64,000 nt of DNA from an uncultured delta proteobacterium (GTDB lineage Bacteria; Desulfobacterota; RBG-13-43-22), in assembly GCA_963843145.1 (NCBI GenBank), contig CAWJJC010000022.1, positions 96,001 through 160,000 on the forward strand. Reading direction: 5' to 3'. The notes under the pieces are model-generated. The model was not told the DNA's origin. It saw only the letters and a program-made list of their open reading frames with translations, and ran no database searches. Of the stretch, positions 1 to 35,877 are shown piece by piece. The first letter of the stretch is position 1; every line of letters starts with the position of its first letter. The translations under genes and the position numbers were made by a program.

Positions 1-1238
1 TTTTTACTTTCCGGCGGAAGAATCTCTTTGCCATTGGCGGGACCTTTTGGTTTTACTTCTTCTTCCATATGCCGTTCCAGGTCTTTTTCCCGCAACATCC
101 GTGGTTCCTTTTCTGCGGGTTCGCCCTTTTTCAGGGGCTTCCCTTTCACCAGGATATCCGGAATGATCCCTTTGGCCTGAATGGACCGCCCGTTGGGGGT
201 ATAGTAACGTGCGGTGGTCAGTTTTAGGCCGGACCCGTCGTCCAGGGGAATGATCGTCTGGACCGAACCCTTGCCAAACGTGGGCGTACCTAAAATAATG
301 GCCCTTTTTTGGTCTTGAAGTGCTCCGGCGACAATCTCGGAGGCGCTGGCGCTGCCCCCATTGACCAAGACCACCATCGGGTATTTTTGGGGGGTTTTAT
401 TAGGATGCGCGTTGAACTTTAAGTTTTGATCTTTGAGCCGCCCTTGGGTATAAACAATCAATCCGGATTCCAGAAATTCATCGGCTATCTTCACTGCTTC
501 GTTCAATAGGCCGCCCGGATCGTTTCTCAAATCCAAAATCAACCCCTTCAATCCCCCTGGAGCGGCTTCCAACTTTTTTAAGGCCGCCTGGAAATCTTCG
601 GTGGTTTTATCCTGAAAGGTGCTAATCCGGATATAACCAAAATTTTCTTCCAAGCTTTTGGATTTAACGCTTTTTATGGGGATGACTTCCCGGGTGATAC
701 TATATTTTTTGGTTTCTTTTTCGCCTTCGTGCAAGATGGTTAGATTAACTTTTGTTCCTCTTGTTCCCCGGATCAAACGGACCGCCTCGGTCAAACTCAT
801 ATTCTTGGAGGATTTTTCGTTGATCTGAAGAATTTTATCGCCGGCCCGCAATCCGGCTTTATCCGCCGGGGTTCCTTCGATGGGTGAAACCACGGTGAGG
901 ATACCATCTTTCAAAGTGATTTCAATTCCGATGCCGCTGAAGATCCCGGTGGTTTCAATTTCCAGTTCTTTAAATTCCTCCGGGGTCAAAAAGGCCGAAT
1001 GGGGATCCAGAGTGTTGACCATCCCTTTGATGGCGCCATAAATCAGATCCTTGGAGTCCTTTTCCTCCACATATTTTTTTTGAATTTCCGAAAGGGCCTC
1101 GCCAAAAATTTTGATTTTCTGGAAGGTCTTGTCCGAATCCGCGGCAACGATCGGATCTCCATGTTGGTCGATGAAAACGAAAAAAGTAAGGAGCACGAGA
1201 ATCAGACTGGCATATTTAATCTTGGCCGTTTTAGACAT
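1..1238 (-). CDS. ctpA: S41 family carboxyl-terminal processing protease (3' end runs off the window)
   Basis: Manual translation from ATG at 1238: MSKTAKIKYASLIL...LDPHSAFLTP...GIGIEI (PDZ)...LILDLRNDPGGLL...VLVNGGSASASEIVAGALQD...TFGKGSVQ. Absent from the ORF track because the stop codon lies outside the window. Confidence 0.95.
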   Translation of the reverse strand, partial: MSKTAKIKYASLILVLLTFFVFIDQHGDPIVAADSDKTFQKIKIFGEALSEIQKKYVEEKDSKDLIYGAIKGMVNTLDPHSAFLTPEEFKELEIETTGIFSGIGIEITLKDGILTVVSPIEGTPADKAGLRAGDKILQINEKSSKNMSLTEAVRLIRGTRGTKVNLTILHEGEKETKKYSITREVIPIKSVKSKSLEENFGYIRISTFQDKTTEDFQAALKKLEAAPGGLKGLILDLRNDPGGLLNEAVKIADEFLESGLIVYTQGRLKDQNLKFNAHPNKTPQKYPMVVLVNGGSASASEIVAGALQDQKRAIILGTPTFGKGSVQTIIPLDDGSGLKLTTARYYTPNGRSIQAKGIIPDILVKGKPLKKGEPAEKEPRMLREKDLERHMEEEVKPKGPANGKEILPPESK

Positions 1239-27231: not shown

Positions 27232-27972
27232 TTATTTTAGCAGGTTTCCGCGAACCCCGATCACTCTTTCCGCCAGGGGGATATTCTTCCCCGCCTTTTC
27301 CATGGCCTGCTTGACGATCCAGGGGAGTCCCGAGCAGCAGGGGACCTCCATGACCACGGTGGTCACGCTGTTGATCTGGGCCGTGTTAAAAATATCCGTA
27401 AACTTCTGAATATATTCCTGGACATCGTCAAACTTGGGGCAGCCCATCATGACCACTTTGCCCTGGAGAAAATCCTGGTGAAAGTTGGGATACGCCAGGG
27501 GGGCGCAGTCGGCTACCACTAAAAGGTCGGCGTTCTTGAGAAAGGGCGCTGTCGGGGGCACCAGCTTGATCTGCACCGGCCAATGGCTGAGGGCCGAACC
27601 CGAAGCGGTTTGGGCCTTCGGCTGGTTGGCTTCCTGACAGGAGGAGACAGGGGCAAAGGTCTGCAGCGTGGTGGAGGGGCAGCCGCAGGGCAGTTTGGTT
27701 TCAGGCTGGGGAACAGCCGGGGGCCTTATAGCCTTCAAATGCTCCTCGACGGCGTGTTCGTCGAAATCCTCGGACTCCCGTTCGATGATGTGCAAGGCGT
27801 CGTTGGGGCATTCCCCCAGGCAGGCCCCCAGACCGTCGCAATATTTTTCAGCCGTCAAGGTGGCCTTCCCGTCTATGATCTGGATGGCCCCTTCGGCACA
27901 GGAAGGGACGCACAGGCCGCAGCCGTCGCAGCGTTCGGGGTCGATTTCAATGATTTTGCGTTTAATTATCAT
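27232..27972 (-). CDS. 4Fe-4S ferredoxin-domain protein (Hcp-associated type)
   Basis: CDGCGLCVPSC, CDGLGACLGECP, CGCP, HWPVQ, GCPKFD, MEVPCCSG. Confidence 0.88.
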   Translation of the reverse strand: MIIKRKIIEIDPERCDGCGLCVPSCAEGAIQIIDGKATLTAEKYCDGLGACLGECPNDALHIIERESEDFDEHAVEEHLKAIRPPAVPQPETKLPCGCPSTTLQTFAPVSSCQEANQPKAQTASGSALSHWPVQIKLVPPTAPFLKNADLLVVADCAPLAYPNFHQDFLQGKVVMMGCPKFDDVQEYIQKFTDIFNTAQINSVTTVVMEVPCCSGLPWIVKQAMEKAGKNIPLAERVIGVRGNLLK

Positions 27973-28003
27973 TAGTTTTTCCTTTGGATAAAAAAGGTTC
28001 ACC

Positions 28004-28088: not shown

Positions 28089-28822
28089 CTACGAAGTTTT
28101 TAAGAACACCTTAATGGCCAATTCCCGGCCGCTGTCGGTTAAAAAAGATCGGTCAATGATCGCGGCCAGCCGTTCCGGGGATGAGGCCTTTTCTTTCTGA
28201 TTTTCTTCCAGGTTGACGATCAGGTCCGAGTCGTAGATCGCTTTGAAGTTGGTGGTTTCCTTCTCCCGGGGATGATGGTGATGGCCGACTATATCGCAGA
28301 CTTCCTCGATCAGCTCTTCCCGGGCGCCCAGTTTGGTCAGGATCTGTCGCGCAATCGGCGGGCCTTCTTCCTCCTGGTAGCGGGCGGCCGTGCTGTGGTA
28401 TTTCCTTTCCGCCTCATGGATGCCGATGTCGTGCAGATAGGCGGCTGAGAGGATCACCGCCGGGTTCCCTTTTTCTTTTCTGGCCAACTCCTCGGCATAG
28501 CGGGCCACCCGGGTGGCATGGCCGATCCGTTTGAAATCTGTGGTGAAGTAGCGCTTCATTTCAATGGCCACCCGGTCCTTTAACAGATCCTCTTTTTGGG
28601 CCATTAGTTCCGGGGGCAGCCCCCCAGGCACTGCTCGGCATGAGGGCAGTAAGAGGCGCAGCCGAAATCCATTTGGGGATTGATGATCCGCTTCCCGCAT
28701 TTCTTGCAGAGTCGGGTGGTGTCGTCTTTAAAGAACTCGAGCTCGGCGCCGCAATGGGGGCATTGGGTCTCGAAAATTGACCCGGGCTTCCAGTAGCGGC
28801 TGTCCTGTCCAGGGCATTTCAT
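28089..28822 (-). CDS. Zn-ribbon + HD-domain phosphohydrolase (frameshift at the homopolymer run 28620-28625)
   Basis: MKCPGQD...CPHC...CKKC...CASYCPHAEQCLG joins ...LPPELMAQ...HATRV...LHDIG...HHHH...YDSD. Confidence 0.85.
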
Positions 28823-28928: not shown

Positions 28929-30557
28929 TTAACCCAATATCGCCTTGAGATCCTCGTCCGGTGTGGTGATGGGCATGACGTTGAACGTCTTTACCAACAC
29001 ATCCAGGACATTGGGGGTGATGAAGGCCGGTAGGGAGGGCCCCAGCCGAATGTTCTTGATCCCCAGGTAAAACAAGGTCAACAAAATGGCTACGGCCTTC
29101 TGCTCATACCAGGAAAGGATCATGGACAAGGGTAGGTCATTGACCCCCACGTTAAAGGCCTTGGACAAGGCCACAGCGATCTGGATGGCCGAATAGGCAT
29201 CATTGCACTGCCCCACGTCCAGGAGGCGCGGGATCCCGCCGATATCTCCCAATTCTTTGTCAAAAAACCGGAACTTGCCGCAGGCCAGGGTGAGGATGAC
29301 CGAATCTTTGGGCGCTTTTTCCACAAACTCGGTGTAGTAGTTTCGGCCCGGTTTGGCCCCGTCGCAACCGGCTACGAGGAAGAAGTGACTGATCGCCTTG
29401 TTCTTGACCGCCTCGATCACCTGGCCGGCCACGCTCATCACGGTGTTCCGGCCGAACCCGACGGTGACCGTTTTCCCGTTGCTGTCTTCCGCAAATCCAG
29501 GCAGGGCCAAAGCCTTTTCGATAACCGGAGCAAAGTCTTTCCCGGCAATATGGGCGACGCCGGGGAAGCCCACCAATCCCGTGGTGAAAATATTGGCCTG
29601 GTAGGATTCCTTGGGCTTCTGAATGCAGTTGGTGGTCATCAGGATGGCCCCGGGAAACTCGCCGAACTCTTTGTGCTGATTCTGCCAGGCCGTCCCATAA
29701 TGGCCATAGAAATGGGCATACTTTTTCAATGCAGGATAACCGTGGGTGGGCAGCATCTCGCCGTGGGTATAAACATTAATCCCTTTGCCTTCGGTCTGTT
29801 TCAGGATCAGTTCCAGGTCTTTCAGGTCATGGCCGGAAACCAGGATGGCCTTGCCCTTTTTATGCCCTAGGGGAACCTTGGTTGGTACGGGATGTCCGTA
29901 GGTTTCCGTATTGGCTGCATCCAGGATTTCCATGGCTTTTAAATTGGCCTCGCCGCATTTCAAGGTCAGGCCCACCCAGTCGTCCAAGGTCAGGTCTTTG
30001 TTCAGGGCGGCGGCCAATCCTTCATGGATAAAGGCATAGACGGACTCATCTTCCTTGCCCAAGATCTGGGCATGGTCAGCGTAAGCGGCGACCCCCTTAA
30101 TCCCGAAAGTGACGGTCCAAATCAGCGCGTGAATATCTCTATCCGTAGTGGTATCTGATTGAATTCCAACCTTTTCTCCCTGGGCGATCATTCCCTCCAG
30201 GGTATCGGCCAGGATTAAATCCGCCGGTCCCTTCGGAAAATCCACTTTTCCGCCGGCCGCTTTCACCTTGGCTTTCAATTTTTCCCGCAGGGCCACGGTC
30301 TCTTTCAGTAAAGGAGCGAACCGCTCGGCGTCAAAATCGACATTGGTCAAAGTCGAAAACAAGGCCTTGACGGTAAAAATATTGGCCTCCGGGTCGCTGA
30401 TGCCCACCTTCCGGCCTTCCACTGCCACCTGGGACAAGCCCCGCATGGCATACACGACCAGATCCTGCAGGGCGGCTACTTCGGGTTGCTTTCCGCAGAC
30501 CCCGACTTTGGTACAGCCTTCCCCTTTGGCGGTTTGTTCACATTGATAACAAAACAT
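28929..30557 (-). CDS. hcp: Hybrid cluster protein (hydroxylamine reductase)
   Basis: MFCYQCEQT...GCTKVGVCGK, SGHDL, THGEMLP, TTNC, GCDG, LACGK, GQCNDAYS, WYEQKA. Confidence 0.97.
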   Translation of the reverse strand: MFCYQCEQTAKGEGCTKVGVCGKQPEVAALQDLVVYAMRGLSQVAVEGRKVGISDPEANIFTVKALFSTLTNVDFDAERFAPLLKETVALREKLKAKVKAAGGKVDFPKGPADLILADTLEGMIAQGEKVGIQSDTTTDRDIHALIWTVTFGIKGVAAYADHAQILGKEDESVYAFIHEGLAAALNKDLTLDDWVGLTLKCGEANLKAMEILDAANTETYGHPVPTKVPLGHKKGKAILVSGHDLKDLELILKQTEGKGINVYTHGEMLPTHGYPALKKYAHFYGHYGTAWQNQHKEFGEFPGAILMTTNCIQKPKESYQANIFTTGLVGFPGVAHIAGKDFAPVIEKALALPGFAEDSNGKTVTVGFGRNTVMSVAGQVIEAVKNKAISHFFLVAGCDGAKPGRNYYTEFVEKAPKDSVILTLACGKFRFFDKELGDIGGIPRLLDVGQCNDAYSAIQIAVALSKAFNVGVNDLPLSMILSWYEQKAVAILLTLFYLGIKNIRLGPSLPAFITPNVLDVLVKTFNVMPITTPDEDLKAILG

Positions 30558-30666
30558 GATCGATCTCCTTTCTTTGATTAAAGTTAGGTTCAATTAATTC
30601 GGAACCAACAGGGCCCGTTTAAACGTCATTTACGTTTAATAATAAGGCGACAACCGCCGAATTGCC

Positions 30667-30833: not shown

Positions 30834-30867
30834 AATCAACATATAAATGTTTATTTATATGTTGATT
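30834..30867. promoter_or_regulatory. ArsR/SmtB-type operator (perfect 15-4-15 palindrome)
   Basis: AATCAACATATAAAT-GTTT-ATTTATATGTTGATT directly upstream of the ArsR gene. Confidence 0.8.
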
Positions 30868-30903
30868 ATTTCAACGGTTGATTTCAAGAATCAGGAATAC
30901 CTA

Positions 30904-31284
30904 ATGATCAATAAGAGCAGAAACAAAATGAGCGGGGAAGAGGCTGAGGCTTACCCGGAGGAGATAGGAAACCAAGAGGAAGGGGAACAGTCCCTCTCCA
31001 CGGTGGCTTTTTTAGCCAAAAGCCTATCGGATGAAAACCGTTTGCGGGTGCTCCTCAGTCTGCGCCAGGGCCGGCTTTCGGTATCCAGCCTGGTGGAGGG
31101 CTTACAATTGTCCCAACCGCTGATTTCACATCATTTAAAGGAATTAAAAAGGTCGCTTCTAGTCAAGGTCGAGCGCAATGGGCCATTTATCTATTACGAA
31201 CTGGCCGATAAAAGAATCCTTCAGATCATGAAAGACCTGGGGACCGTGGCCGGGGAATTACTGGCCAACCGTCGAACTTTTTAG
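30904..31284 (+). CDS. tsoR: ArsR/SmtB family regulator (TsoR-like)
   Basis: LSDENRLRVL, LSQPLISHHLKELK, VERNGPFIYY; heads the selenoprotein operon. Symbol recalled from NCBIfam naming; start could be 30928. Confidence 0.85.
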   Translation: MINKSRNKMSGEEAEAYPEEIGNQEEGEQSLSTVAFLAKSLSDENRLRVLLSLRQGRLSVSSLVEGLQLSQPLISHHLKELKRSLLVKVERNGPFIYYELADKRILQIMKDLGTVAGELLANRRTF

Positions 31285-31299
31285 TCAGGAGAACAGCCG

Positions 31300-31755
31300 A
31301 TGCCTGGAAAAACGATACTGGAATTAATCGAGAAACTCGAGCCGGAAAAAGCCTTAAAAGAAATTTCTCTGGCGGTCAAAACCCTTTTCCCCTTGCTGGA
31401 TCAGGAGTCCCGGCTGAATTTTGTGGTCAGCCTGATCGGGGATGCCGGAGCGGACAAGGTGGCCAGCCTGGTGAACCTCTGACTGGCGGAATGCCTGGAC
31501 GAAGGTGTCGATCCAACCAAGATGTGCCAGAGTCTAGTGGATAAGGTTTTTCAATCGAAACAGTTAAGAACCGTGGCCGAACCGGATATTTTAGTGCTTT
31601 TTGAAGACTGGCTGGAGGAATTGGAAGAGGAAATCATAAAACAGGTGCAAAAAATCGGTCCCAACGATCTGGGGAAATTGGCTCGAGGGTTGGGGTTGTC
31701 CCAGGCCGGCGTAAATTTCCTGATCACCAAATTAAAGCGGGAAGAAAGGATTTGA
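31300..31755 (+). CDS. tsoA: Selenoprotein with LULAxC motif (Sec at TGA 31480-31482), 151 aa
   Basis: ORFs 31300-31482 and 31522-31755 are in frame and joined by open codons: VNL-TGA-LAECLDEGVDPTKMCQ. Confidence 0.82.
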
Positions 31756-31795
31756 AAGAAAAAGGGCCCTGAATTATTTGGCGGAGGTGTTCTTT

Positions 31796-33529
31796 ATGAA
31801 CCATAAAACCATATTTATTGCCGCCCTCTCAGTGGCTCTGGTAATCGGGGTTCTCTGGTTTACCAACCGGGCCGTAACCCCAACGGCGGCTACCTGGGAA
31901 GATGTTCTCCAGGAAGCCCAGCGCGGCGGCTATCGGATTATCAAGACGGATGAGATCTGGGAACGGGTTCAAAAAAATCCACAGAACCTGATGCTGGTGG
32001 ATACCCGTCAGGAATGGGAATATCGGACCGGACACCTCAGAGGGGCGGTGAATTTCCCCATGGAACCCACGGCCTGGTCCCGCTGGCGAAAACAAAAGGA
32101 GATGGAAACCTTTTTAGGACCCGATAAAAACCGCTTCTTCGTCTTTTACTGAGCGGGCTTGACCTGAGTCCGTAGCGACTCCGCAGCCCGGGTGGCTGTT
32201 AAACTTGGCTATAGAAATGTATATCGCGATCCCTACGGATTTCCGGAATGGCAGGCTAAAGGATATCCCATCAATAGCGCTCCGGCCGGCCTGTCCGGGG
32301 AAGCGGCCCCTCCCAAGACCCCCGGTCCTTTGTATGGCTGGGCCATGATCTGGACCCTGCTGGGCATCTTTGCCGGAGGGATCGCCCTGAACCTGACTCC
32401 ATGCGTCTATCCCATGATTCCCATTACCGTTTCCTATTTTGGGGGGCGGAGCGGACAGGGAAAGGGAAAACTATTGACCCATGGCCTGTTATACCTGGGA
32501 GGGCTGTCGGCCACCAACTCCATTTTGGGTGTCGTCGCGGCCTTGACCGGGGGGCTTATGGGGGCTATGCTTCAAAACCCGCTGGTTTTGGTGATAGTTG
32601 CCGCTATCTTGGTTTTTTTTGCCTCCAGCCTCTTCGGGTTTTGGGAATTGCGCCTTCCCGGAGGCCTTACCAACAGGGCTTCCAAATCATATGCCGGTTA
32701 TTTCGGTTCGTTATTTATGGGCTTGACCCTGGGCGTGGTAGCCGCACCCTGCATTGGTCCTTTCGTTCTCGGACTCTTAACCTGGGTGGCCAGCATGGGG
32801 TCCCCCTGGCTGGGGTTTATTGTCTTTTTTACCTTGAGCCTGGGCCTGGGCCTGCCTTTGTTCTTTCTGGCCTTGTTCTCCGGCAAGATCGAAAAATTGC
32901 CCCGGTCCGGGGAGTGGATGCTCTGGGTTCGAAAACTCATGGGTTGGATCCTGGTGGGCATGGCGGCCTATTTCATTCGGCCCCTCCTATCCGAAACCTT
33001 AGCAGTACTCCTTTTCGTTTCGGTAGCCTTGGGCGCCGGACTGCACCTTGGCTGGCTGGACAAGTCCCGGGCCGGCTTTCGGGCCTTCGCCTGGATGAAA
33101 GGCGGGGCCGGGGTTGCCGGTCTGGTGATTGCCACTTTTATCCTGGGATCCTGGATGATACGCGGTCCGGGGGTGGCCTGGAATGCCTATTCGGACAAGC
33201 TCCTGGCGGAAGCGGCCCAAAACCGGAAACCGGTCATCATCGATTTTTATGCCACCTGGTGTACCCCCTGCCGGGAACTGGAGGAAATCACCTTTCACCA
33301 TCCTGAGGTGGTCAAAAGGGGAAATCGTGATTTTATCATGGTAAAAGTGGACCTGACCCGGGCCGGCGATCCACTAAATGAACGGCTACTCCGTCAGTAT
33401 AAAATCAAAGGAGTTCCAACCGTGGTATTTATAGACTCGAGTGGGAAAGAGCATCCGGACTTAAGGCTGGTCGATTATCTCCCGCCGGATCAGTTCTTGA
33501 AGAAAATGGATACCATAAACCAAAAATAA
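31796..33529 (+). CDS. tsoB: Rhodanese-CcdA/DsbD-thioredoxin fusion selenoprotein with two Sec (TGA 32150-32152 and 32165-32167), 577 aa
   Basis: FVFY-U-AGLT-U-VRSDSAAR.A.KLGY.NVY matches the rhodanese loop VFYCxGxxCxRS; continues in frame to LTPCVYP/AAPCIGP (DsbD TM) and ATWCTPC (Trx). Confidence 0.9.
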
Positions 33530-33547
33530 GGGAGGACGGGTGAACAT

Positions 33548-34057
33548 ATGGCGTACATAGAGAAATTTTTAGGAAAACGGGTCGAGATCCCTGAGGACCG
33601 GCGGTATGTGATTAAACCGGGGCTCTGGGCCAAGGTGGAAGGGCCGGATTTTCGATTTGGTTTAACCGAACCGGAACTGGTTTTGGCCGGTGGGGTCAAT
33701 GACCTGGAATGGCTGGTCTGGGACGGCGAGGAAGTGGAACAGGGACAGTCGATCGCCATTATCATTACCGGAAAAATTAAATATATCGACGTTCCCCTGG
33801 CCGGGGTCCTGGGATTAAATCCAAAAGTGAAAGAGGTCACGGCCCTTATTGCCCAGGATCCTTATGGACAGGGATGGCTGTTTCAAATTAAAAAAGGGTC
33901 CGAAGCGAATGCCGGCTTCGAGGAACTATCATCGGCTGAAGCGTATGTGGCAAGTCTACAGAATTCAGAGGGTTGTAAGAACCCGGAAGGAATAAAGGGC
34001 GGAGTCTCCGGGATCTGCAAGGCAGTTTATACTGGGATCAAAGAACAAAAATTCTAA
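33548..34057 (+). CDS. GcvH-like (glycine cleavage H family) protein with C-terminal Cys pair
   Basis: IPEDRRY..LWAK, FGLT, PLAG, DPYGQGWL; lipoyl site degenerate (ITGKIK); tail GCKNP...GICKAVY. Confidence 0.78.
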   Translation: MAYIEKFLGKRVEIPEDRRYVIKPGLWAKVEGPDFRFGLTEPELVLAGGVNDLEWLVWDGEEVEQGQSIAIIITGKIKYIDVPLAGVLGLNPKVKEVTALIAQDPYGQGWLFQIKKGSEANAGFEELSSAEAYVASLQNSEGCKNPEGIKGGVSGICKAVYTGIKEQKF

Positions 34058-34080
34058 AAATAAGGAAAGGAGAAAATAAT

Positions 34081-34398
34081 ATGGTCAAGGTCCGGTGTTT
34101 TTATAATGAACCCAATGGGAAGCCATGAAAGCATTTTCAGGAAATGATGCCCAGGTTGGGCCAAAAGTACGAAATTGAGGTTGAAATACTATCCAAACCT
34201 ATAGCTGAATACAATACGGATGAATATTTTGAACTGGAATTGCCGGTAGCCCCGGCCATCATGGTGGATGATCAGATCATGGTGGAAGGCTCCGATGTCG
34301 CTGAAGAAAAATTGGAGAACGCCATCCGCGCCAAATTGGGTCTGGAGCCTGTGGCGTCGGAAAAGAAGGGGGTCCTGGGGCGGCTTTTTAGTCGTTAA
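34081..34398 (+). CDS. tsoC: Thioredoxin/glutaredoxin-like selenoprotein, NEPxGxxU motif (Sec at TGA 34126-34128), 105 aa
   Basis: AAGGAG RBS before ATG 34081; MVKVRCFYNEPNGKP-TGA-KHFQEMMPRL is in frame with ORF 34144-34398, which carries the cis-Pro motif PVAPAIMVDD. Confidence 0.88.
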
Positions 34399-34479
34399 AG
34401 GTCGCTTTTCCCCTTGCCTCGTTTGTTTTTTCCTTATACATTCTTAAAATTATAAAAAAAGTTAAAAAGGAGGAGATCC

Positions 34480-34809
34480 ATGAAGACCTTCGAGTATGAG
34501 GGGATGAAGATTGAGCTGGATGAAGAGGGGTATCTTCTGGACTTTGAGGCTTGGGATGAAAAAGTGGCCTGTGCCTTGGCGGAGAGGGAAGGGATAAGCC
34601 AGGACTGTCCCCTGAAACCTGAACAAATGGAAATTCTGAAATTCATCCGAGAATATTATAAGAAGTTTGAATCCGTGCCTGTGGTCCGGGCGGTCTGCAC
34701 CAATGTCCATCAACCTAAAAGTTGCGAATACCTGCAGTTTCCCGATCCACTGATCACCTGTAAAATCGCCGGGATTCCCAAACTGGAAACCGGGTATACC
34801 TTGATGTAA
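34480..34809 (+). CDS. TusE/DsrC-like protein lacking the C-terminal active-site Cys
   Basis: LDEEGYL..F..WDE..A..LA..EGI, FIREYY, CKIAGIPK then ETGYTLM-stop. Confidence 0.85.
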   Translation: MKTFEYEGMKIELDEEGYLLDFEAWDEKVACALAEREGISQDCPLKPEQMEILKFIREYYKKFESVPVVRAVCTNVHQPKSCEYLQFPDPLITCKIAGIPKLETGYTLM

Positions 34810-34833
34810 CCCGGTTCGCTTGAATGGACGCCT

Positions 34834-34859
34834 GCCGCCCCGATGCGGATCGGGGCGGC
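34834..34859. terminator. Hairpin between convergent genes
   Basis: GCCGCCCCGAT-GCGG-ATCGGGGCGGC with a downstream T-tract. Confidence 0.6.
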
Positions 34860-34899
34860 GGAACCCCGGAACGCGCAAGCGGTTTTTTTTCTTCGGCTA

Positions 34900-35877
34900 T
34901 TATAAAAAATACTGAAGGATGTACCGCAGAGCCAGGTAGGTGATGATGGCCCCCAAGAAAAATTTAATGAATTTTTGGGGGACAAATTTCTGGGCCCTGG
35001 CCCCCAAATATATACCGATGAATCCCCCGGCGCCGAAGAGAAATCCCAGGAACCAATCCGGAGCGGTGGTCAGGCCACCGGGGTGGGGTATGAGACTGTA
35101 AAAGATTACTCCCACGATGGAAGTCAGGAAGGTCCCCAGCAGGGCGGCGCCGGCCACGGTATAAACCGGCAAACGGAAGACGGCCACACAAAAGGGGGCG
35201 ATAATGGCCCCGCCGCCGATTCCGTAAGTCCCGCCGATGATCCCTACGAAAAAGGCCAGCAGGGCCATGGCCGGTGTGCTGAAAAAAAATCGTTCTCCCC
35301 AAAATTCATATTCAACCCGGGAGAGGGTAAAACGGATCGTTTTGATCACTGCTTCGGGAGGCAGTCCGGCGTTTACCCTGGCCTTCTGGGTCTGCCTTAG
35401 CTCCCGGACCCGCTGATTGAATTTGTCTTCCAGGGCCTTCAACTGTTTTTTACCCTTCTGGGACCGGGGGGTCATTTCGTAAAGGATACGAACTCCGATA
35501 TAAAGCAGCACGCAGCCCACAAATAACTTAAAGCTCCTGGGATCGGGCAAATATAGAATGCGCAGGTAGTACCCGAGAAAAACCCCGGGCAGGGTGCCCA
35601 CAATCACCACCCAGGTCAGCGGCCAGGCCATCCGCCCCTCCTTCAGGAAGCGATAGACGCCGCTGGGGATAGCCACAATATTGTAGACGAAATTGGTGGC
35701 GCTGACCGAGGGAGTCACGAAGTGCAGGTAGCTCACCTGAAAAGGCAGGAGTAAGAAGGCCCCGGAAACCCCTCCCATGGAGGTGAAGAAGGAAACCACC
35801 AGGGCCACCAGGGGAGGGAGGAAGAGATAGGTCTCAACTCCGGAAACCGAGAACGTCCAAAAAAGACTGTCCATCAT
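34900..35877 (-). CDS. TauE/SafE (TSUP) family membrane transporter
   Basis: TSMGGVSGAFLLLP and GGTYGIGGGAIIAP repeats. Confidence 0.9.
   Translation of the reverse strand: MMDSLFWTFSVSGVETYLFLPPLVALVVSFFTSMGGVSGAFLLLPFQVSYLHFVTPSVSATNFVYNIVAIPSGVYRFLKEGRMAWPLTWVVIVGTLPGVFLGYYLRILYLPDPRSFKLFVGCVLLYIGVRILYEMTPRSQKGKKQLKALEDKFNQRVRELRQTQKARVNAGLPPEAVIKTIRFTLSRVEYEFWGERFFFSTPAMALLAFFVGIIGGTYGIGGGAIIAPFCVAVFRLPVYTVAGAALLGTFLTSIVGVIFYSLIPHPGGLTTAPDWFLGFLFGAGGFIGIYLGARAQKFVPQKFIKFFLGAIITYLALRYILQYFL

Follow-up and report, generated by a model that had tools for sequence, protein, structure and literature searches.

A Tso (three selenoprotein operon) locus with four in-frame TGA codons in a Desulfobacterota genome

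Identity and gene order of the locus

The window, a 64,000-nucleotide stretch of DNA from a Desulfobacterota genome, contains a run of genes (~30904 to 34809) in which three coding regions are interrupted by four in-frame TGA codons. This raises the question of whether these codons encode selenocysteine (Sec, U) and what the full-length products would do. Translating TGA as U fused the frames at 31480-31482 (tsoA), 32150-32152 and 32165-32167 (tsoB) and 34126-34128 (tsoC), in agreement with the original prediction. This placed U61 of TsoA in the motif LULAEC, the two Sec residues of TsoB in FYUAGLTUVRS and the Sec of TsoC in NEPNGKPU. The read-through products exceeded the cut-offs of five NCBIfam equivalog/exception models: TsoR (154.1 bits, cut-off 115), TsoA (224.4 bits, cut-off 170), TsoB (1024.6 bits, cut-off 805), TsoC (143.6 bits, cut-off 45) and a GcvH-related protein (246.4 bits, cut-off 150). 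The names TsoR/A/B/C given in the original prediction were therefore right, and profile matches confirmed its gene order of ArsR, LULAxC, rhodanese-DsbD-Trx, GcvH-like, NEPxGxxU, DsrC-like and convergent TauE. The operon order is tsoR-tsoA-tsoB-(gcvH-like)-tsoC-(dsrC-like), flanked by a palindromic operator candidate and a terminator-like hairpin (Table 1). The tsoR start at 30904 was chosen to match the 126-aa protein on record (P0122). For tsoB the ATG start was used; the frame can also be read from a TTG at 31778. The tsoA stop is itself a TGA, at 31753.

Table 1. Features of the Tso locus, in window coordinates
Feature	Position	Strand	Description	Model or basis
Candidate tso operator palindrome	30834..30867	.		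Perfect 15-nt inverted repeat
tsoR	30904..31284	+	ArsR/SmtB-type, 126 aa	NF045707, PF01022
tsoA	31300..31755	+	LULAxC selenoprotein, 151 aa	NF045695
tsoA SECIS-like hairpin	31496..31515	+		Pairing across relatives
tsoB	31796..33529	+	Rhodanese-DsbD-Trx, 577 aa	NF045694, PF00581, PF02683, thioredoxin families
Hairpin after first tsoB UGA	32166..32181	+		Conservation only
SECIS-like hairpin after second tsoB UGA	32183..32199	+		Compensatory changes
GcvH-related gene	33548..34057	+	169 aa	NF045810
tsoC	34081..34398	+	NEPxGxxU selenoprotein, 105 aa	NF045708
tsoC SECIS-like hairpin	34149..34161	+		Pairing across relatives
DsrC/TusE-family gene	34480..34809	+	109 aa	TIGR03342, PF04358
Terminator-like hairpin and U8 run	34832..34890	+		Folding energy
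TauE/SafE (TSUP) permease	34900..35877	-	325 aa	PF01925

The Tso system has been published (Haft & Tolstoy 2025, mSystems 10:e0141724, as cited in a review) as the three selenoprotein operon, with TsoR, TsoA, TsoB and TsoC represented by NF045707, NF045695, NF045694 and NF045708. The operon is real but not new: it is already catalogued in sulfate-reducer relatives, with curated models, and is not the hidden operon that had been proposed. As the review presents it, the published system has the same gene order, phylum and motifs (LULAxC, UxxxxU, NEPxGxxU) and differs from the window copy in nothing essential. Additions in the window copy are a GcvH-related gene that separates tsoB from tsoC and, after tsoC, the DsrC-like and TauE genes; the VTT/DedA gene present in about half of the loci compared is missing from it. 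A literature search for biochemical characterisation of Tso returned nothing beyond a review from 2026 and a database paper. Both cite Haft & Tolstoy 2025, and the outcome is consistent with the original prediction, which knew of no such work. Searches for TsoX and TsoY gave no match in the genome, and the control of the same search matched nowhere either, so that the absence of these genes does not follow. We consider it nearly certain that this is a bona fide Tso locus with Sec at all four UGAs.

Conservation of the TGA codons and the Sec machinery

Relatives were compared using the window and the best 80 of 224 related Desulfobacterota loci, and TsoB and TsoC profiles were searched against a phylum sample of 401 genomes. 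Among the window and best 80 loci, TGA occupied the aligned site in every sequence (81/81 at both TsoB sites, 54/54 for TsoA and 68/68 for TsoC). In the phylum sample TsoB was over cut-off in 29 rows from 25/401 genomes; all 29 had two TGAs, and no Cys form was seen among them. TsoC had TGA in 41/43 rows (31/401 genomes). TsoA, TsoB and TsoC are, as predicted from these codons, all obligate selenoproteins in the genomes examined.

The genome also encodes the Sec machinery, with matches to selA (609 bits), selB (369 bits), a Sec-type selD that carries its own in-frame TGA (395 bits) and a tRNA-Sec with anticodon TCA (75 bits). TGA is used as an ordinary stop, ending 16/44 long ORFs of the window, and because of this a code in which TGA encodes Trp was ruled out. 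Metagenome contigs aligned to the stretch had no insertions or deletions that we could see. The site at 34126 was covered by one identical contig (X2) and the other three by contigs of relatives (X3, X6), with no difference at those sites among the rows listed. The original prediction that the TGAs are unlikely to be artefacts and that they encode Sec held up on both counts, in the homologues and in the genome's own machinery.

Hairpins downstream of the UGA codons

A hairpin follows each UGA, as had been predicted. Folded singly, the hairpins were not more stable than shuffles (z -0.77, -0.49, +0.03 and +0.29). Across relatives, however, 99.1-99.3% of cells held standard pairs compared to 9-61% with a slid partner, and three of the four hairpins had compensatory changes. 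At the level of sequence, the comparison with relatives is decisive over single-sequence stability. Protein constraint may explain part of the nucleotide conservation, for example at EGVDP in TsoA and MPRLG in TsoC.

The tsoA hairpin has 7 pairs and one bulged A, and its apical loop, AGGUG, occupies +24..28 counted from the U of the Sec codon. It was paired in 99.2% of 238 cells (slid partners 9-43%), and its pair 20-33 was split evenly over 34 distinct sequences, 17 with A-U and 17 with G-C. The first tsoB hairpin (GAGUC, loop CGUAGC, GACUC) overlaps the second UGA, whose G and A fall in its 5' arm. It was 98.9% paired in 74 distinct sequences with no compensatory changes among them, so that its support is conservation only. 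The second tsoB hairpin (6 pairs, loop CGGGU at +25..29 from the second UGA) was 99.5% paired and varied at pair 36-48 (GC 51, AU 15, CG 3, GU 4) and pair 39-45 (CG 66, UA 8), with the changes falling at synonymous codon positions. Across 65 distinct sequences the tsoC hairpin (GCCCA, loop GGU, UGGGC) had 99.1% of its cells paired, against 16-58% for slid partners, and its pair 24-36 was GC 54, GU 7, AU 1, UA 1 and other 2.

These results bear on the alternative that each TGA is a genuine stop, a sequencing error or a lesion in a pseudogene and that the region holds six or seven short unrelated ORFs. The genes are indeed split under translation table 11, public gene callers mostly list just the 86-aa TsoA tail, and the lack of single-sequence hairpin stability fits this explanation as well. 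It does not account for four aligned TGAs kept in every related locus examined (best 80 of 224) and in every over-cut-off TsoB of the phylum sample, for read-through products attaining curated full-length cut-offs, for downstream hairpins with compensatory changes, for a complete Sec machinery, or for metagenome contigs free of visible insertions and deletions. We regard it as barely credible and, as far as sequence goes, refuted by the conserved TGAs, full-length scores, hairpins and Sec machinery. The four UGAs, each with its own downstream SECIS-like hairpin in a genome with Sec machinery, fit Sec decoding, from which we infer Sec insertion.

TsoB as a candidate DsbD-like relay

TsoB is ordered rhodanese, DsbD_TM, thioredoxin, with an N-terminal hydrophobic anchor or signal and 8 hydrophobic helices by hydropathy. 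Its Cys/Sec residues number exactly six, U119/U124, C203/C319 and C489/C492 (WCTPC). Like those of DsbD they form three pairs, and every one of them is kept in 95% or more of 81 sequences. TsoB shares with DsbD/ScsB/CcdA the DsbD_TM domain with one conserved Cys per half and 8 membrane helices, the C-terminal, in TsoB predicted periplasmic, thioredoxin domain with CxxC, and three redox pairs per chain. It differs in that the N-terminal immunoglobulin-like domain of DsbD is swapped for a rhodanese with a two-Sec redox pair, and it scores 238 bits against a DsbD cut-off of 330. SoxV-SoxW is a sulfur-pathway example of such transmembrane disulfide reductases.

The rhodanese domain has the fold and domain family of single-domain GlpE/PspE-type rhodaneses. 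Alignment to the solved relative 6mxv put the first Sec exactly at the catalytic, persulfide-forming Cys, with a 2-residue insertion in the loop, which holds the second Sec. Unlike those proteins, the domain is predicted to lie outside the membrane, joined to its own reductase in one chain. SelL-type UxxU diselenide proteins also have two close Sec in one redox motif, but in a thioredoxin-like fold with x2 spacing and in another domain of life, whereas TsoB has a rhodanese fold and x4 spacing.

The original prediction of a transmembrane thiol/selenol relay fits this DsbD-like build, and TsoB is probably such a relay, ending at a periplasmic rhodanese. As a DsbD-type electron conduit of predicted topology and electron flow, it would pass cytoplasmic reducing equivalents to the membrane pair C203/C319, then to the periplasmic thioredoxin domain (C489/C492) and on to the rhodanese domain, where Sec would stand in for the catalytic Cys with a second Sec five residues on in the lengthened loop. 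The U-x4-U would be the working part, a diselenol of low potential and high nucleophilicity that captures a periplasmic chalcogen or other soft electrophile and is reduced again afterwards. One point against a relay is that the potential of a diselenide may be too low for reduction by a CxxC domain. A thioredoxin reductase gene, which would suit a relay, lay on the same strand in 10/80 loci (best 80 of 224).

TsoC as a putative cytoplasmic partner

TsoC has a single Sec, U16, modelled just before helix 1 of a thioredoxin fold (pLDDT 83.8, pTM 0.71), and no second conserved Cys was found in it. The best fold matches were thioredoxins, ArsD and glutaredoxin (E 4e-3 to 2e-2, prob 0.99), and neither TsoC nor TsoR has a hydrophobic segment. 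We propose that TsoC is a cytoplasmic thioredoxin-fold protein and the likeliest cytoplasmic partner of TsoB. Against this, TsoC with its one redox residue would be unable alone to perform thioredoxin's two-step exchange with DsbD.

TsoR, TsoA and the candidate operator

TsoR is a winged-helix protein of the ArsR/SmtB type. The window TsoR has zero Cys and no conserved Cys was found across 57 homologues; therefore the ArsR control originally predicted stands as to the type of regulator but cannot mean classical thiol-based arsenite sensing. The operator candidate has 15-nt arms with a 4 nt spacer, 100% complementary, ~37 nt upstream of tsoR, with a core TATAAA-N6-TTTATA at 30842-30859. The exact core was present in 13/52 tsoR upstream regions, and 36/52 had it with at most 1 change per half-site; just 15 exact matches occurred in 876,331 bases of the best 80 of 224 loci. 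The half-site also looks like a -10 box. BigR, a thiol-based ArsR/SmtB persulfide/sulfite sensor, shares with TsoR the winged-helix family and a palindromic operator (a candidate for TsoR) just upstream of its own gene. In contrast to BigR, TsoR lacks a conserved Cys, its score with the BigR model is 47.9 bits (cut-off 155), and the redox residues of Tso are on the separate TsoA or, in 8 variant loci, on a rhodanese domain fused to the regulator.

Three redox residues of TsoA are invariant (U61, C65 and C76), and the protein has no hydrophobic segment. Its C-terminal region matched the winged-helix family HTH_24 in 26/32 members at E<=1 (best 1.5e-6), the window copy reaching just E 0.037, below the Pfam threshold. 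The structural model was mediocre (pLDDT 70.9, pTM 0.39) and gave no whole-chain fold match at E<=0.001; local matches of 45 residues (rmsd 1.2-1.6 A) were to HTH domains of Lrp/AsnC, MntR and ArsR. Public annotators label a C-terminal TsoA fragment 'predicted transcriptional regulator'. The C-terminal two-thirds are common to an unnamed family with Met-rich, Cys-rich N-termini.

In loci with enough upstream DNA (73 of the best 80 of 224), TsoA was present in 50, always with TsoR and never without it. TsoR occurred without full TsoA in three loci, and both were absent from 8 loci in which an ArsR-rhodanese fusion takes the place of the regulator. Five genomes had a TsoR-TsoA pair adjoining DsrE-family genes (3/5 also TauE), and TsoB and TsoC were not found there. 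Some TsoR-TsoA modules adjoin a DsrE-like selenoprotein.

The chances that TsoA has a regulatory role seem about even. It would then stand outside the catalytic relay and act as the sensor for TsoR, a repressor that itself lacks Cys: the U-x3-C...C head would detect the signal, redox or chalcogen, and the winged-helix tail would attach TsoA to TsoR or, if it binds DNA, to the operator. TsoA could instead be a catalytic redox carrier on the cytoplasmic side of the relay, perhaps resolving single-Sec TsoC as that protein feeds TsoB; the HTH would then be a protein-binding module only. Such a carrier would explain the invariant redox residues, would complete the dithiol-type exchange that TsoC alone could not, and would agree with the position of tsoA immediately before tsoB in those 50/73 loci and with the sub-threshold HTH signal of the window copy. 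We think it possible but rather doubtful, as TsoB and TsoC occur without TsoA in 8 fusion-regulator, 3 TsoR-only and 13 loci with neither, TsoA is never without TsoR, and TsoR-TsoA pairs exist in genomes where neither TsoB nor TsoC was found.

Possible substrates

The best overall explanation, which we moderately favor, is a Tso locus with TsoB as relay, TsoC as its partner and TsoA as sensor. The first-choice substrate of the TsoB U-x4-U would be sulfane sulfur or polysulfide, and we propose sulfane sulfur only tentatively. Several features share a sulfur theme: TsoB has a rhodanese head, the alternative regulator is fused to a rhodanese, the TsoR-TsoA module elsewhere adjoins DsrE-family and TauE genes, and the window itself carries DsrC-like and TauE genes. 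Other observations speak for metal or selenium over sulfur, namely the Met-rich heads of TsoA relatives, the VTT/DedA gene that follows tsoC on the same strand in 33/59 loci, and the ties of ArsR/SmtB and DsbD-like (Scs) systems to metals.

The same relay could serve in defence against a soft metal or metalloid (copper, mercury, arsenic, tellurium), comparable to Scs copper tolerance, with the U-x4-U head and the TsoA Sec/Cys head binding or sensing metal. TsoR belongs to a metalloregulator family, the family sharing the TsoA C-terminal two-thirds has N-termini of a Met-rich and Cys-rich composition typical of Cu(I) sites, ArsD is among the TsoC fold matches, and both DsbD and ScsB have links to copper tolerance. 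This seems unlikely given that TsoR has neither a conserved Cys (57 homologues) nor, as far as could be examined, a recognised metal site, that no metal pump or chaperone was found among recurrent neighbours (best 80 of 224 loci), and that the alternative regulator's rhodanese domain and the alternative DsrE/TauE cargo are sulfur-type proteins.

Selenium itself is a further candidate, with selenite or elemental Se captured or reduced at the periplasmic rhodanese and passed inward for SelD supply or detoxification. In its favor, rhodanese domains can carry selenium as perselenide, a VTT/DedA gene follows tsoC in 33/59 loci and selenite uptake has been linked to a protein of the DedA type, some TsoR-TsoA modules lie beside a DsrE-like selenoprotein, and TsoA, TsoB and TsoC are predicted obligate selenoproteins in the genomes examined. 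The explanation is circular, requiring selenium to acquire selenium; moreover no selD, selA or known selenium transporter was found in the window locus or among recurrent neighbours (best 80 of 224 loci), and the window locus has TauE, not DedA. We judge it quite improbable.

Accessory genes

The original prediction counted all of these genes in the locus. The core Tso genes stood, and the GcvH-like (8/80), DsrC-like (4/80) and TauE (3/80) genes are lineage-specific additions, not core Tso parts (best 80 of 224 loci). Most other loci have a VTT/DedA-family gene downstream in place of TauE. The TauE protein (129 bits) is convergent with the operon, and between dsrC-like and tauE lies the terminator-like hairpin, a 13-pair stem at 34832-34861 followed by the U8 run at 34883-34890 (-40.8 kcal/mol, z -1.88), which a simple scan did not list. 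The DsrC-like protein (66.1 bits, cut-off 53.5) keeps the inner Cys (C94) and ends ...PKLETGYTLM with no Cys near the C-terminus; its alignment to solved DsrC chains ends at AGIPK. The GcvH-related protein falls under the true-GcvH cut-off, keeps the Lys at the lipoyl position when aligned to solved GcvH and has a Cys-bearing C-terminal tail.

Four in-frame UGA codons in a three selenoprotein operon

Using genetic code table 11 the region was split into short ORFs that ended at TGA, and when TGA was read as selenocysteine (U) these ORFs fused into three longer frames. The original prediction had described four in-frame TGAs joining the split ORFs and all four were confirmed, at the exact positions listed in the Table. 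TGA is otherwise a normal stop in this window, with the 44 long non-overlapping ORFs ending in TAA (20), TGA (16) and TAG (8). The read-through products were scored against the NCBIfam models and TsoR, TsoA, TsoB and TsoC each exceeded the cut-off, with the TsoA match running from residue 6 to 149 on model positions 1 to 144, so the family names given in that prediction proved correct. The three selenoproteins carried the expected motifs with TGA at each U, and the two TGAs in TsoB were also reported by a genome search. TsoR heads a same-strand cluster with the order R-A-B-(GcvH-like)-C. Pfam assigned HTH_5 to TsoR, Rhodanese, DsbD_TM and thioredoxin domains to TsoB, GCV_H to the GcvH-like gene, DsrC to the last gene and TauE to the convergent gene; no Pfam match was obtained for TsoA or TsoC.

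Features of the Tso region and its divergent upstream neighbors
Feature	Position	Strand	Description	Model, bits (cut-off)
Ferredoxin-like Fe-S protein	27232-28002	-	divergent upstream of tsoR
HDIG-domain protein	28089-28700	-	divergent upstream of tsoR
Hydroxylamine reductase (hybrid-cluster protein)	28929-30593	-		832
Operator candidate	30834-30867		perfect 15-nt inverted repeat, core TATAAA-N6-TTTATA
TsoR		+		NF045707, 154.1 (115)
TsoA	31300-31755	+	151 aa; LULAEC, U61; TGA 31480	NF045695, 224.4 (170)
tsoA UGA hairpin	31496-31515	+	loop AGGUG; 99.2% of cells paired
TsoB	31796-33529	+	577 aa from ATG at 31796; FYUAGLTUVRS, U119 and U124; TGAs 32150, 32165	NF045694, 1024.6 (805)
First tsoB UGA hairpin	32166-32181	+	loop CGUAGC; 98.9% paired
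Second tsoB UGA hairpin	32183-32199	+	loop CGGGU; 99.5% paired
GcvH-like (GcvH-related)	33548-34057	+		NF045810, 246.4 (150)
TsoC	34081-34398	+	105 aa; NEPNGKPU, U16; TGA 34126	NF045708, 143.6 (45)
tsoC UGA hairpin	34149-34161	+	loop GGU; 99.1% paired
DsrC-like (TusE/DsrC family)	34480-34809	+		TIGR03342, 66.1 (53.5)

The original prediction called for Sec machinery in the same genome, and the complete set was present. The genome (97.9% complete) encodes selA (609.4 bits), selB (368.8) and selD (395.3), each above its cut-off, and a tRNA-Sec (RF01852, 75.1 bits; called by ARAGORN as tRNA-SeC with anticodon tca). The selD gene of this genome (G000:C27:447576-448499) has one in-frame TGA, indicating a Sec-type selenophosphate synthetase. 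The locus is a textbook member of the Tso (three selenoprotein operon) type with predicted Sec codons, and both the observation and its reading in the original prediction were right.

Conservation of the Sec codons in relatives

Species-representative genomes were scanned for loci encoding a TsoB relative, and of the 224 obtained the best 80 were kept. Judged by record title all 80 belong to Desulfobacterota, although some carry older or broader names; among the carriers are Desulfobulbus sp. Tol-SR, Desulfoprunum benzoelyticum, Desulfomonile tiedjei and Desulfonema limicola. With the window included, the codon aligned to Sec was TGA in every sequence compared, at both sites of TsoB (81/81) and in TsoA (54/54) and TsoC (68/68), which is the pattern that the homologue comparison proposed in advance had looked for. 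Across an even draw of 401 genomes from the phylum TsoB was above the cut-off in 25 genomes, giving 29 matches with two TGAs in each, and no Cys form of TsoB was seen. TGA-less matches to the TsoB model in the 401 genomes began at model position 154 or later and are DsbD-like proteins of the usual kind, which lack the rhodanese head. TsoC was found in 31 of the 401 genomes, with one TGA in 41 of 43 matches. Retention of TGA at the Sec sites of relatives indicates that TsoA, TsoB and TsoC are obligate selenoproteins within the genomes examined. This, together with the lack of a Cys-form TsoB in the 401 genomes, argues for a genuine requirement of the chemistry for selenium.

The two TGA-less TsoC matches are adjacent pieces in one genome (G161:C87:80163-80676) that has no TsoB above the cut-off, and may represent a relative that lacks Sec or a gene that has been disrupted. 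Metagenome contigs over the stretch were patchy and, judged on the differences listed, were counted as weak agreement only. Among the sequencing runs listed none of RNA matched the stretch, and the best DNA run contained 0.20 of its words.

Annotation of these genes in public records was poor. Among the best 120 TsoA relatives from 5.8 billion proteins, 116 were C-terminal fragments of 86-96 aa and the four full-length proteins each had W at the Sec position, which indicates that the gene caller read TGA as Trp. Full-length public TsoA records with Trp at this position are P0002, P0003, P0004, P0028 and P0266; on short contigs the caller had evidently changed to a code in which TGA is Trp. The remaining public TsoA records are mostly 86-aa fragments labeled either 'predicted transcriptional regulator' or 'hypothetical'. 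The Tso genes would be named by the current NCBI models, yet most public gene calls still break them, so that TsoA is mostly recorded with Trp in place of Sec or as a 'hypothetical protein' of 86 aa.

A conserved hairpin follows each UGA

When the 65 nt behind each UGA were folded as single sequences the energies were unremarkable. Ungapped alignments of distinct downstream sequences (34 for tsoA, 74 for tsoB and 65 for tsoC) revealed one conserved hairpin per UGA in the relatives (Table), in agreement with the earlier claim that a hairpin follows each TGA. Slid-partner controls were 9-61% paired compared to about 99% for the real partners. Compensatory pairs were detected in three of the four hairpins: in tsoA pair 20-33 was A-U in 17 sequences and G-C in 17, in the second tsoB hairpin pair 36-48 was GC 51, AU 15, CG 3 and GU 4 and pair 39-45 was CG 66 and UA 8, and in tsoC pair 24-36 was GC 54, GU 7, AU 1, UA 1 and other 2. 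In the second tsoB hairpin these substitutions fall at synonymous sites. The first hairpin of tsoB, whose 5' arm contains the second UGA, showed conservation with no compensatory variation. GGU is present in three of the four apical loops, some 25-30 nt downstream of the UGA, and a GGU apical loop at this distance is typical of a bacterial SECIS. Rfam returned no family at E<=1 between 30500 and 35000; we know of no general bacterial SECIS family in Rfam. Outer stems drawn around the tsoA and tsoB hairpins by single-sequence folding were, judged by eye, not kept in the alignments and were rejected.

TsoB combines a DsbD-like build with a predicted two-Sec rhodanese

Hydropathy analysis of TsoB identified a hydrophobic stretch at the N-terminus (residues 5-23), followed by eight hydrophobic helices within residues 183-458. 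The protein has six Cys/Sec residues in total, U119/U124 in the rhodanese, C203/C319 in the membrane part and C489/C492 in the thioredoxin domain; C203, C319 and the WC.PC motif were kept in at least 95% of 81 TsoB sequences and U119/U124 were also conserved. This is the same three-pair plan as DsbD, with PF02683 (141.5 bits), two conserved membrane Cys and a C-terminal CxxC thioredoxin domain, but the outer domain has been swapped: the N-terminal immunoglobulin-like domain of DsbD with its Cys pair is replaced in TsoB by a rhodanese (PF00581). The DsbD model NF001419 scored 238.4 bits, under its cut-off of 330, and matched residues 184-574 only. In rhodanese sulfurtransferases the catalytic Cys starts a six-residue active-site loop. 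The first TsoB Sec aligns with the catalytic Cys of the solved rhodanese 6mxv, and compared to the loop of that protein (C-GG--FRS) the TsoB loop (U-AGLT-U-VRS) has Sec for Cys and is two residues longer. A periplasm-facing two-Sec rhodanese wired to its own membrane reductase would be an unexplored enzyme design. The same genome also has a stand-alone relative of the rhodanese head (G000:C20:618046-618495; 106.9 bits, model positions 22-169) with a TAA within the match.

The confidently predicted fold of TsoC (pLDDT 83.8) was beta-alpha-beta followed by beta-beta-alpha, with U16 just before helix 1. Its best fold matches were thioredoxins, ArsD and glutaredoxin, a uniform set with weak E-values. 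Neither a second conserved Cys, in the homologue alignment, nor a signal sequence, by hydropathy, was found in TsoC. One related locus (L059:7754-9156) has two TsoC copies, the second scoring 114.5 bits with NDPCGLTU, and an ArsR-family gene with a Cys-rich tail on the opposite strand between them.

Accessory and neighboring genes

The additional genes of the window's operon region were infrequent in the 80 loci (GcvH-like 8, DsrC-like 4, TauE 3), and a thioredoxin reductase gene was nearby in 10. In 59 loci enough DNA was available downstream of tsoC, and in 33 of these the gene was followed on its own strand by a gene for a VTT/DedA-family membrane protein (L085:3569-4264, PF09335, and 32 others); the window has the TauE permease instead. 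The GcvH-like protein scored 42.6 and 35.4 bits on true GcvH models, under their cut-offs of 117 and 115.85, and has a Lys that aligns with the lipoyl Lys of 1onl. DsrC/TusE proteins have a Cys near the flexible C-terminal end, at the penultimate residue. The window protein passes the DsrC/TusE family model but ends ...CKIAGIPKLETGYTLM, with no Cys after AGIPK, where its alignments to solved DsrC chains stop.

The hydroxylamine reductase, HDIG and Fe-S trio was found only in the loci of the closest relatives (clusters 16, 19 and 25), in a neighborhood clustering that used greedy table-11 gene calls and from which the shadow-ORF clusters 2, 4 and 15 (at tsoR, tsoC and one other gene) were dropped. 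The operon region is followed downstream by genes for an ABC binding protein and for a two-component pair.

TsoR and TsoA as a candidate control module

Of 52 regions upstream of tsoR, 13 contained the exact core of the inverted repeat and 36 contained it when one change per half-site was allowed, a count that omits four loci in which tsoR lies at the contig start (L035, L043, L048 and L090). The exact core matched only 15 times in 876 kb of loci and twice in the 64-kb window, and this candidate operator may double as a -10 box. The other end of the operon is marked by a strong hairpin and U-run, placed after the dsrC-like gene.

The structural model of TsoA was all-helical with a poorly predicted middle and three confident last helices, which gave local matches to the HTH domains of Lrp/AsnC, MntR and ArsR proteins; a whole-chain fold search gave nothing at E<=0.001. 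HTH_24 was detected in 26 of 32 TsoA members at E<=1 (best 1.5e-6, window copy 0.037). U61, C65 and C76 of TsoA are invariant. TsoR of the window has zero Cys and the 57 homologues have no conserved Cys column. An As(III)-sensing ArsR was considered for TsoR and rejected because the Cys ligands for arsenite are absent.

Synteny upstream of tsoB was assessed in 73 loci, each having 1 kb or more of DNA on that side. TsoR and TsoA occurred together in 50 loci, TsoR only in 3 and TsoA only in none; 7 had an ArsR-HTH/rhodanese fusion regulator and 13 had none of these. The fusion regulator (222 aa) joins an ArsR-type HTH to a Cys-bearing rhodanese domain and sits directly upstream of tsoB in eight loci overall (L031:5656-6321, L053, L065, L071, L076, L081, L084 and L102), all without TsoR/TsoA. 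As a single protein it seems to take the place of the TsoR-TsoA pair. At L093:3842-5795, also without TsoR/TsoA, two genes identified by eye precede tsoB, one rubrerythrin-like and the other radical-SAM-like with a Cys-rich C-terminus.

A profile search of 1.84 billion representatives showed that the C-terminal two-thirds of TsoA is common to an unnamed family, for which neither Pfam nor NCBIfam has a separate entry. Its members (P0280, P0282, P0292, P0297, P0276, P0300, P0304, P0342 and P0384) are small, with Met-/Cys-rich N-termini, a conserved NP-x-EMC motif and a C-terminal winged-helix; P0266 and L117 have a variant U/W-x3-C head. Searching one relative from this family back in the phylum located TsoR-TsoA pairs that are not beside tsoB or tsoC (L111:1107-3476, L113, L116, L118 and L119:692-2571). 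Three genomes of one genus have the order TsoR, TsoA (HLUIAKC), DsrE family, TauE, and in two other genomes the pair (TsoR 152.7 bits, TsoA 219.3 bits) adjoins DsrE-family genes. TsoB and TsoC were not found in these five genomes at the thresholds of the 401-genome searches. We take the occurrence of the pair in genomes in which TsoB and TsoC were not found as the best evidence that it is a control module and not part of the catalytic chain. At L118 and L119 the adjoining DsrE-family gene has an in-frame TGA (FYVUGVC), indicating a further selenoprotein, and at L111 alone a CGGC-domain gene was identified between the DsrE-family and TauE genes.

We tentatively propose that TsoA could be a Sec-based sensor working with the Cys-less repressor TsoR, the two forming a transcriptional switch that senses through Sec, that the pair could be a portable control module placed before sulfur/selenium trafficking genes, and that TsoA could be the Sec-bearing branch of the unnamed family with a soft-ligand head and a winged-helix tail. 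The cargo of such a module would be TsoB/TsoC here and DsrE-family and TauE genes elsewhere. Should TsoA prove to be a Sec-dependent regulator, it would introduce a novel mode of sensing for redox state or chalcogens.

Proposed mechanism and relation to known Tso loci

The mechanism that we favor, an inference that fits all of the computed data, would have TsoB act as a DsbD-like relay ending at its periplasmic two-Sec rhodanese. The supply to this relay would come from the cytoplasm, where TsoC is the most probable partner, and control would lie with the TsoR-TsoA sensor pair. For the substrate of this relay sulfane sulfur is a possible but doubtful choice, a soft metal or metalloid is unlikely and selenium is more unlikely still; general periplasmic repair or something else takes up the rest of the probability.

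A 2026 review (PMC13188914) gives the name Tso together with the motifs LULAxC, UxxxxU and NEPxGxxU and cites Haft & Tolstoy 2025; a database paper also cites that work. TsoX and TsoY were not detected in the genome of the window, but the control for this search detected them nowhere, so the result does not indicate absence. As this operon type was described in 2025 the window locus is already known and carries little weight as a finding. Our literature search, which did not extend to the full text of Haft & Tolstoy 2025, found no experimental work on Tso, consistent with the statement in the original prediction that no biochemical characterization was known. Tso is one of few systems with three selenoproteins in one operon in every genome examined. 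Two carriers, Desulfoprunum benzoelyticum DSM 28570 (L054) and Desulfobulbus sp. Tol-SR (L033), are cultured, making these questions testable.
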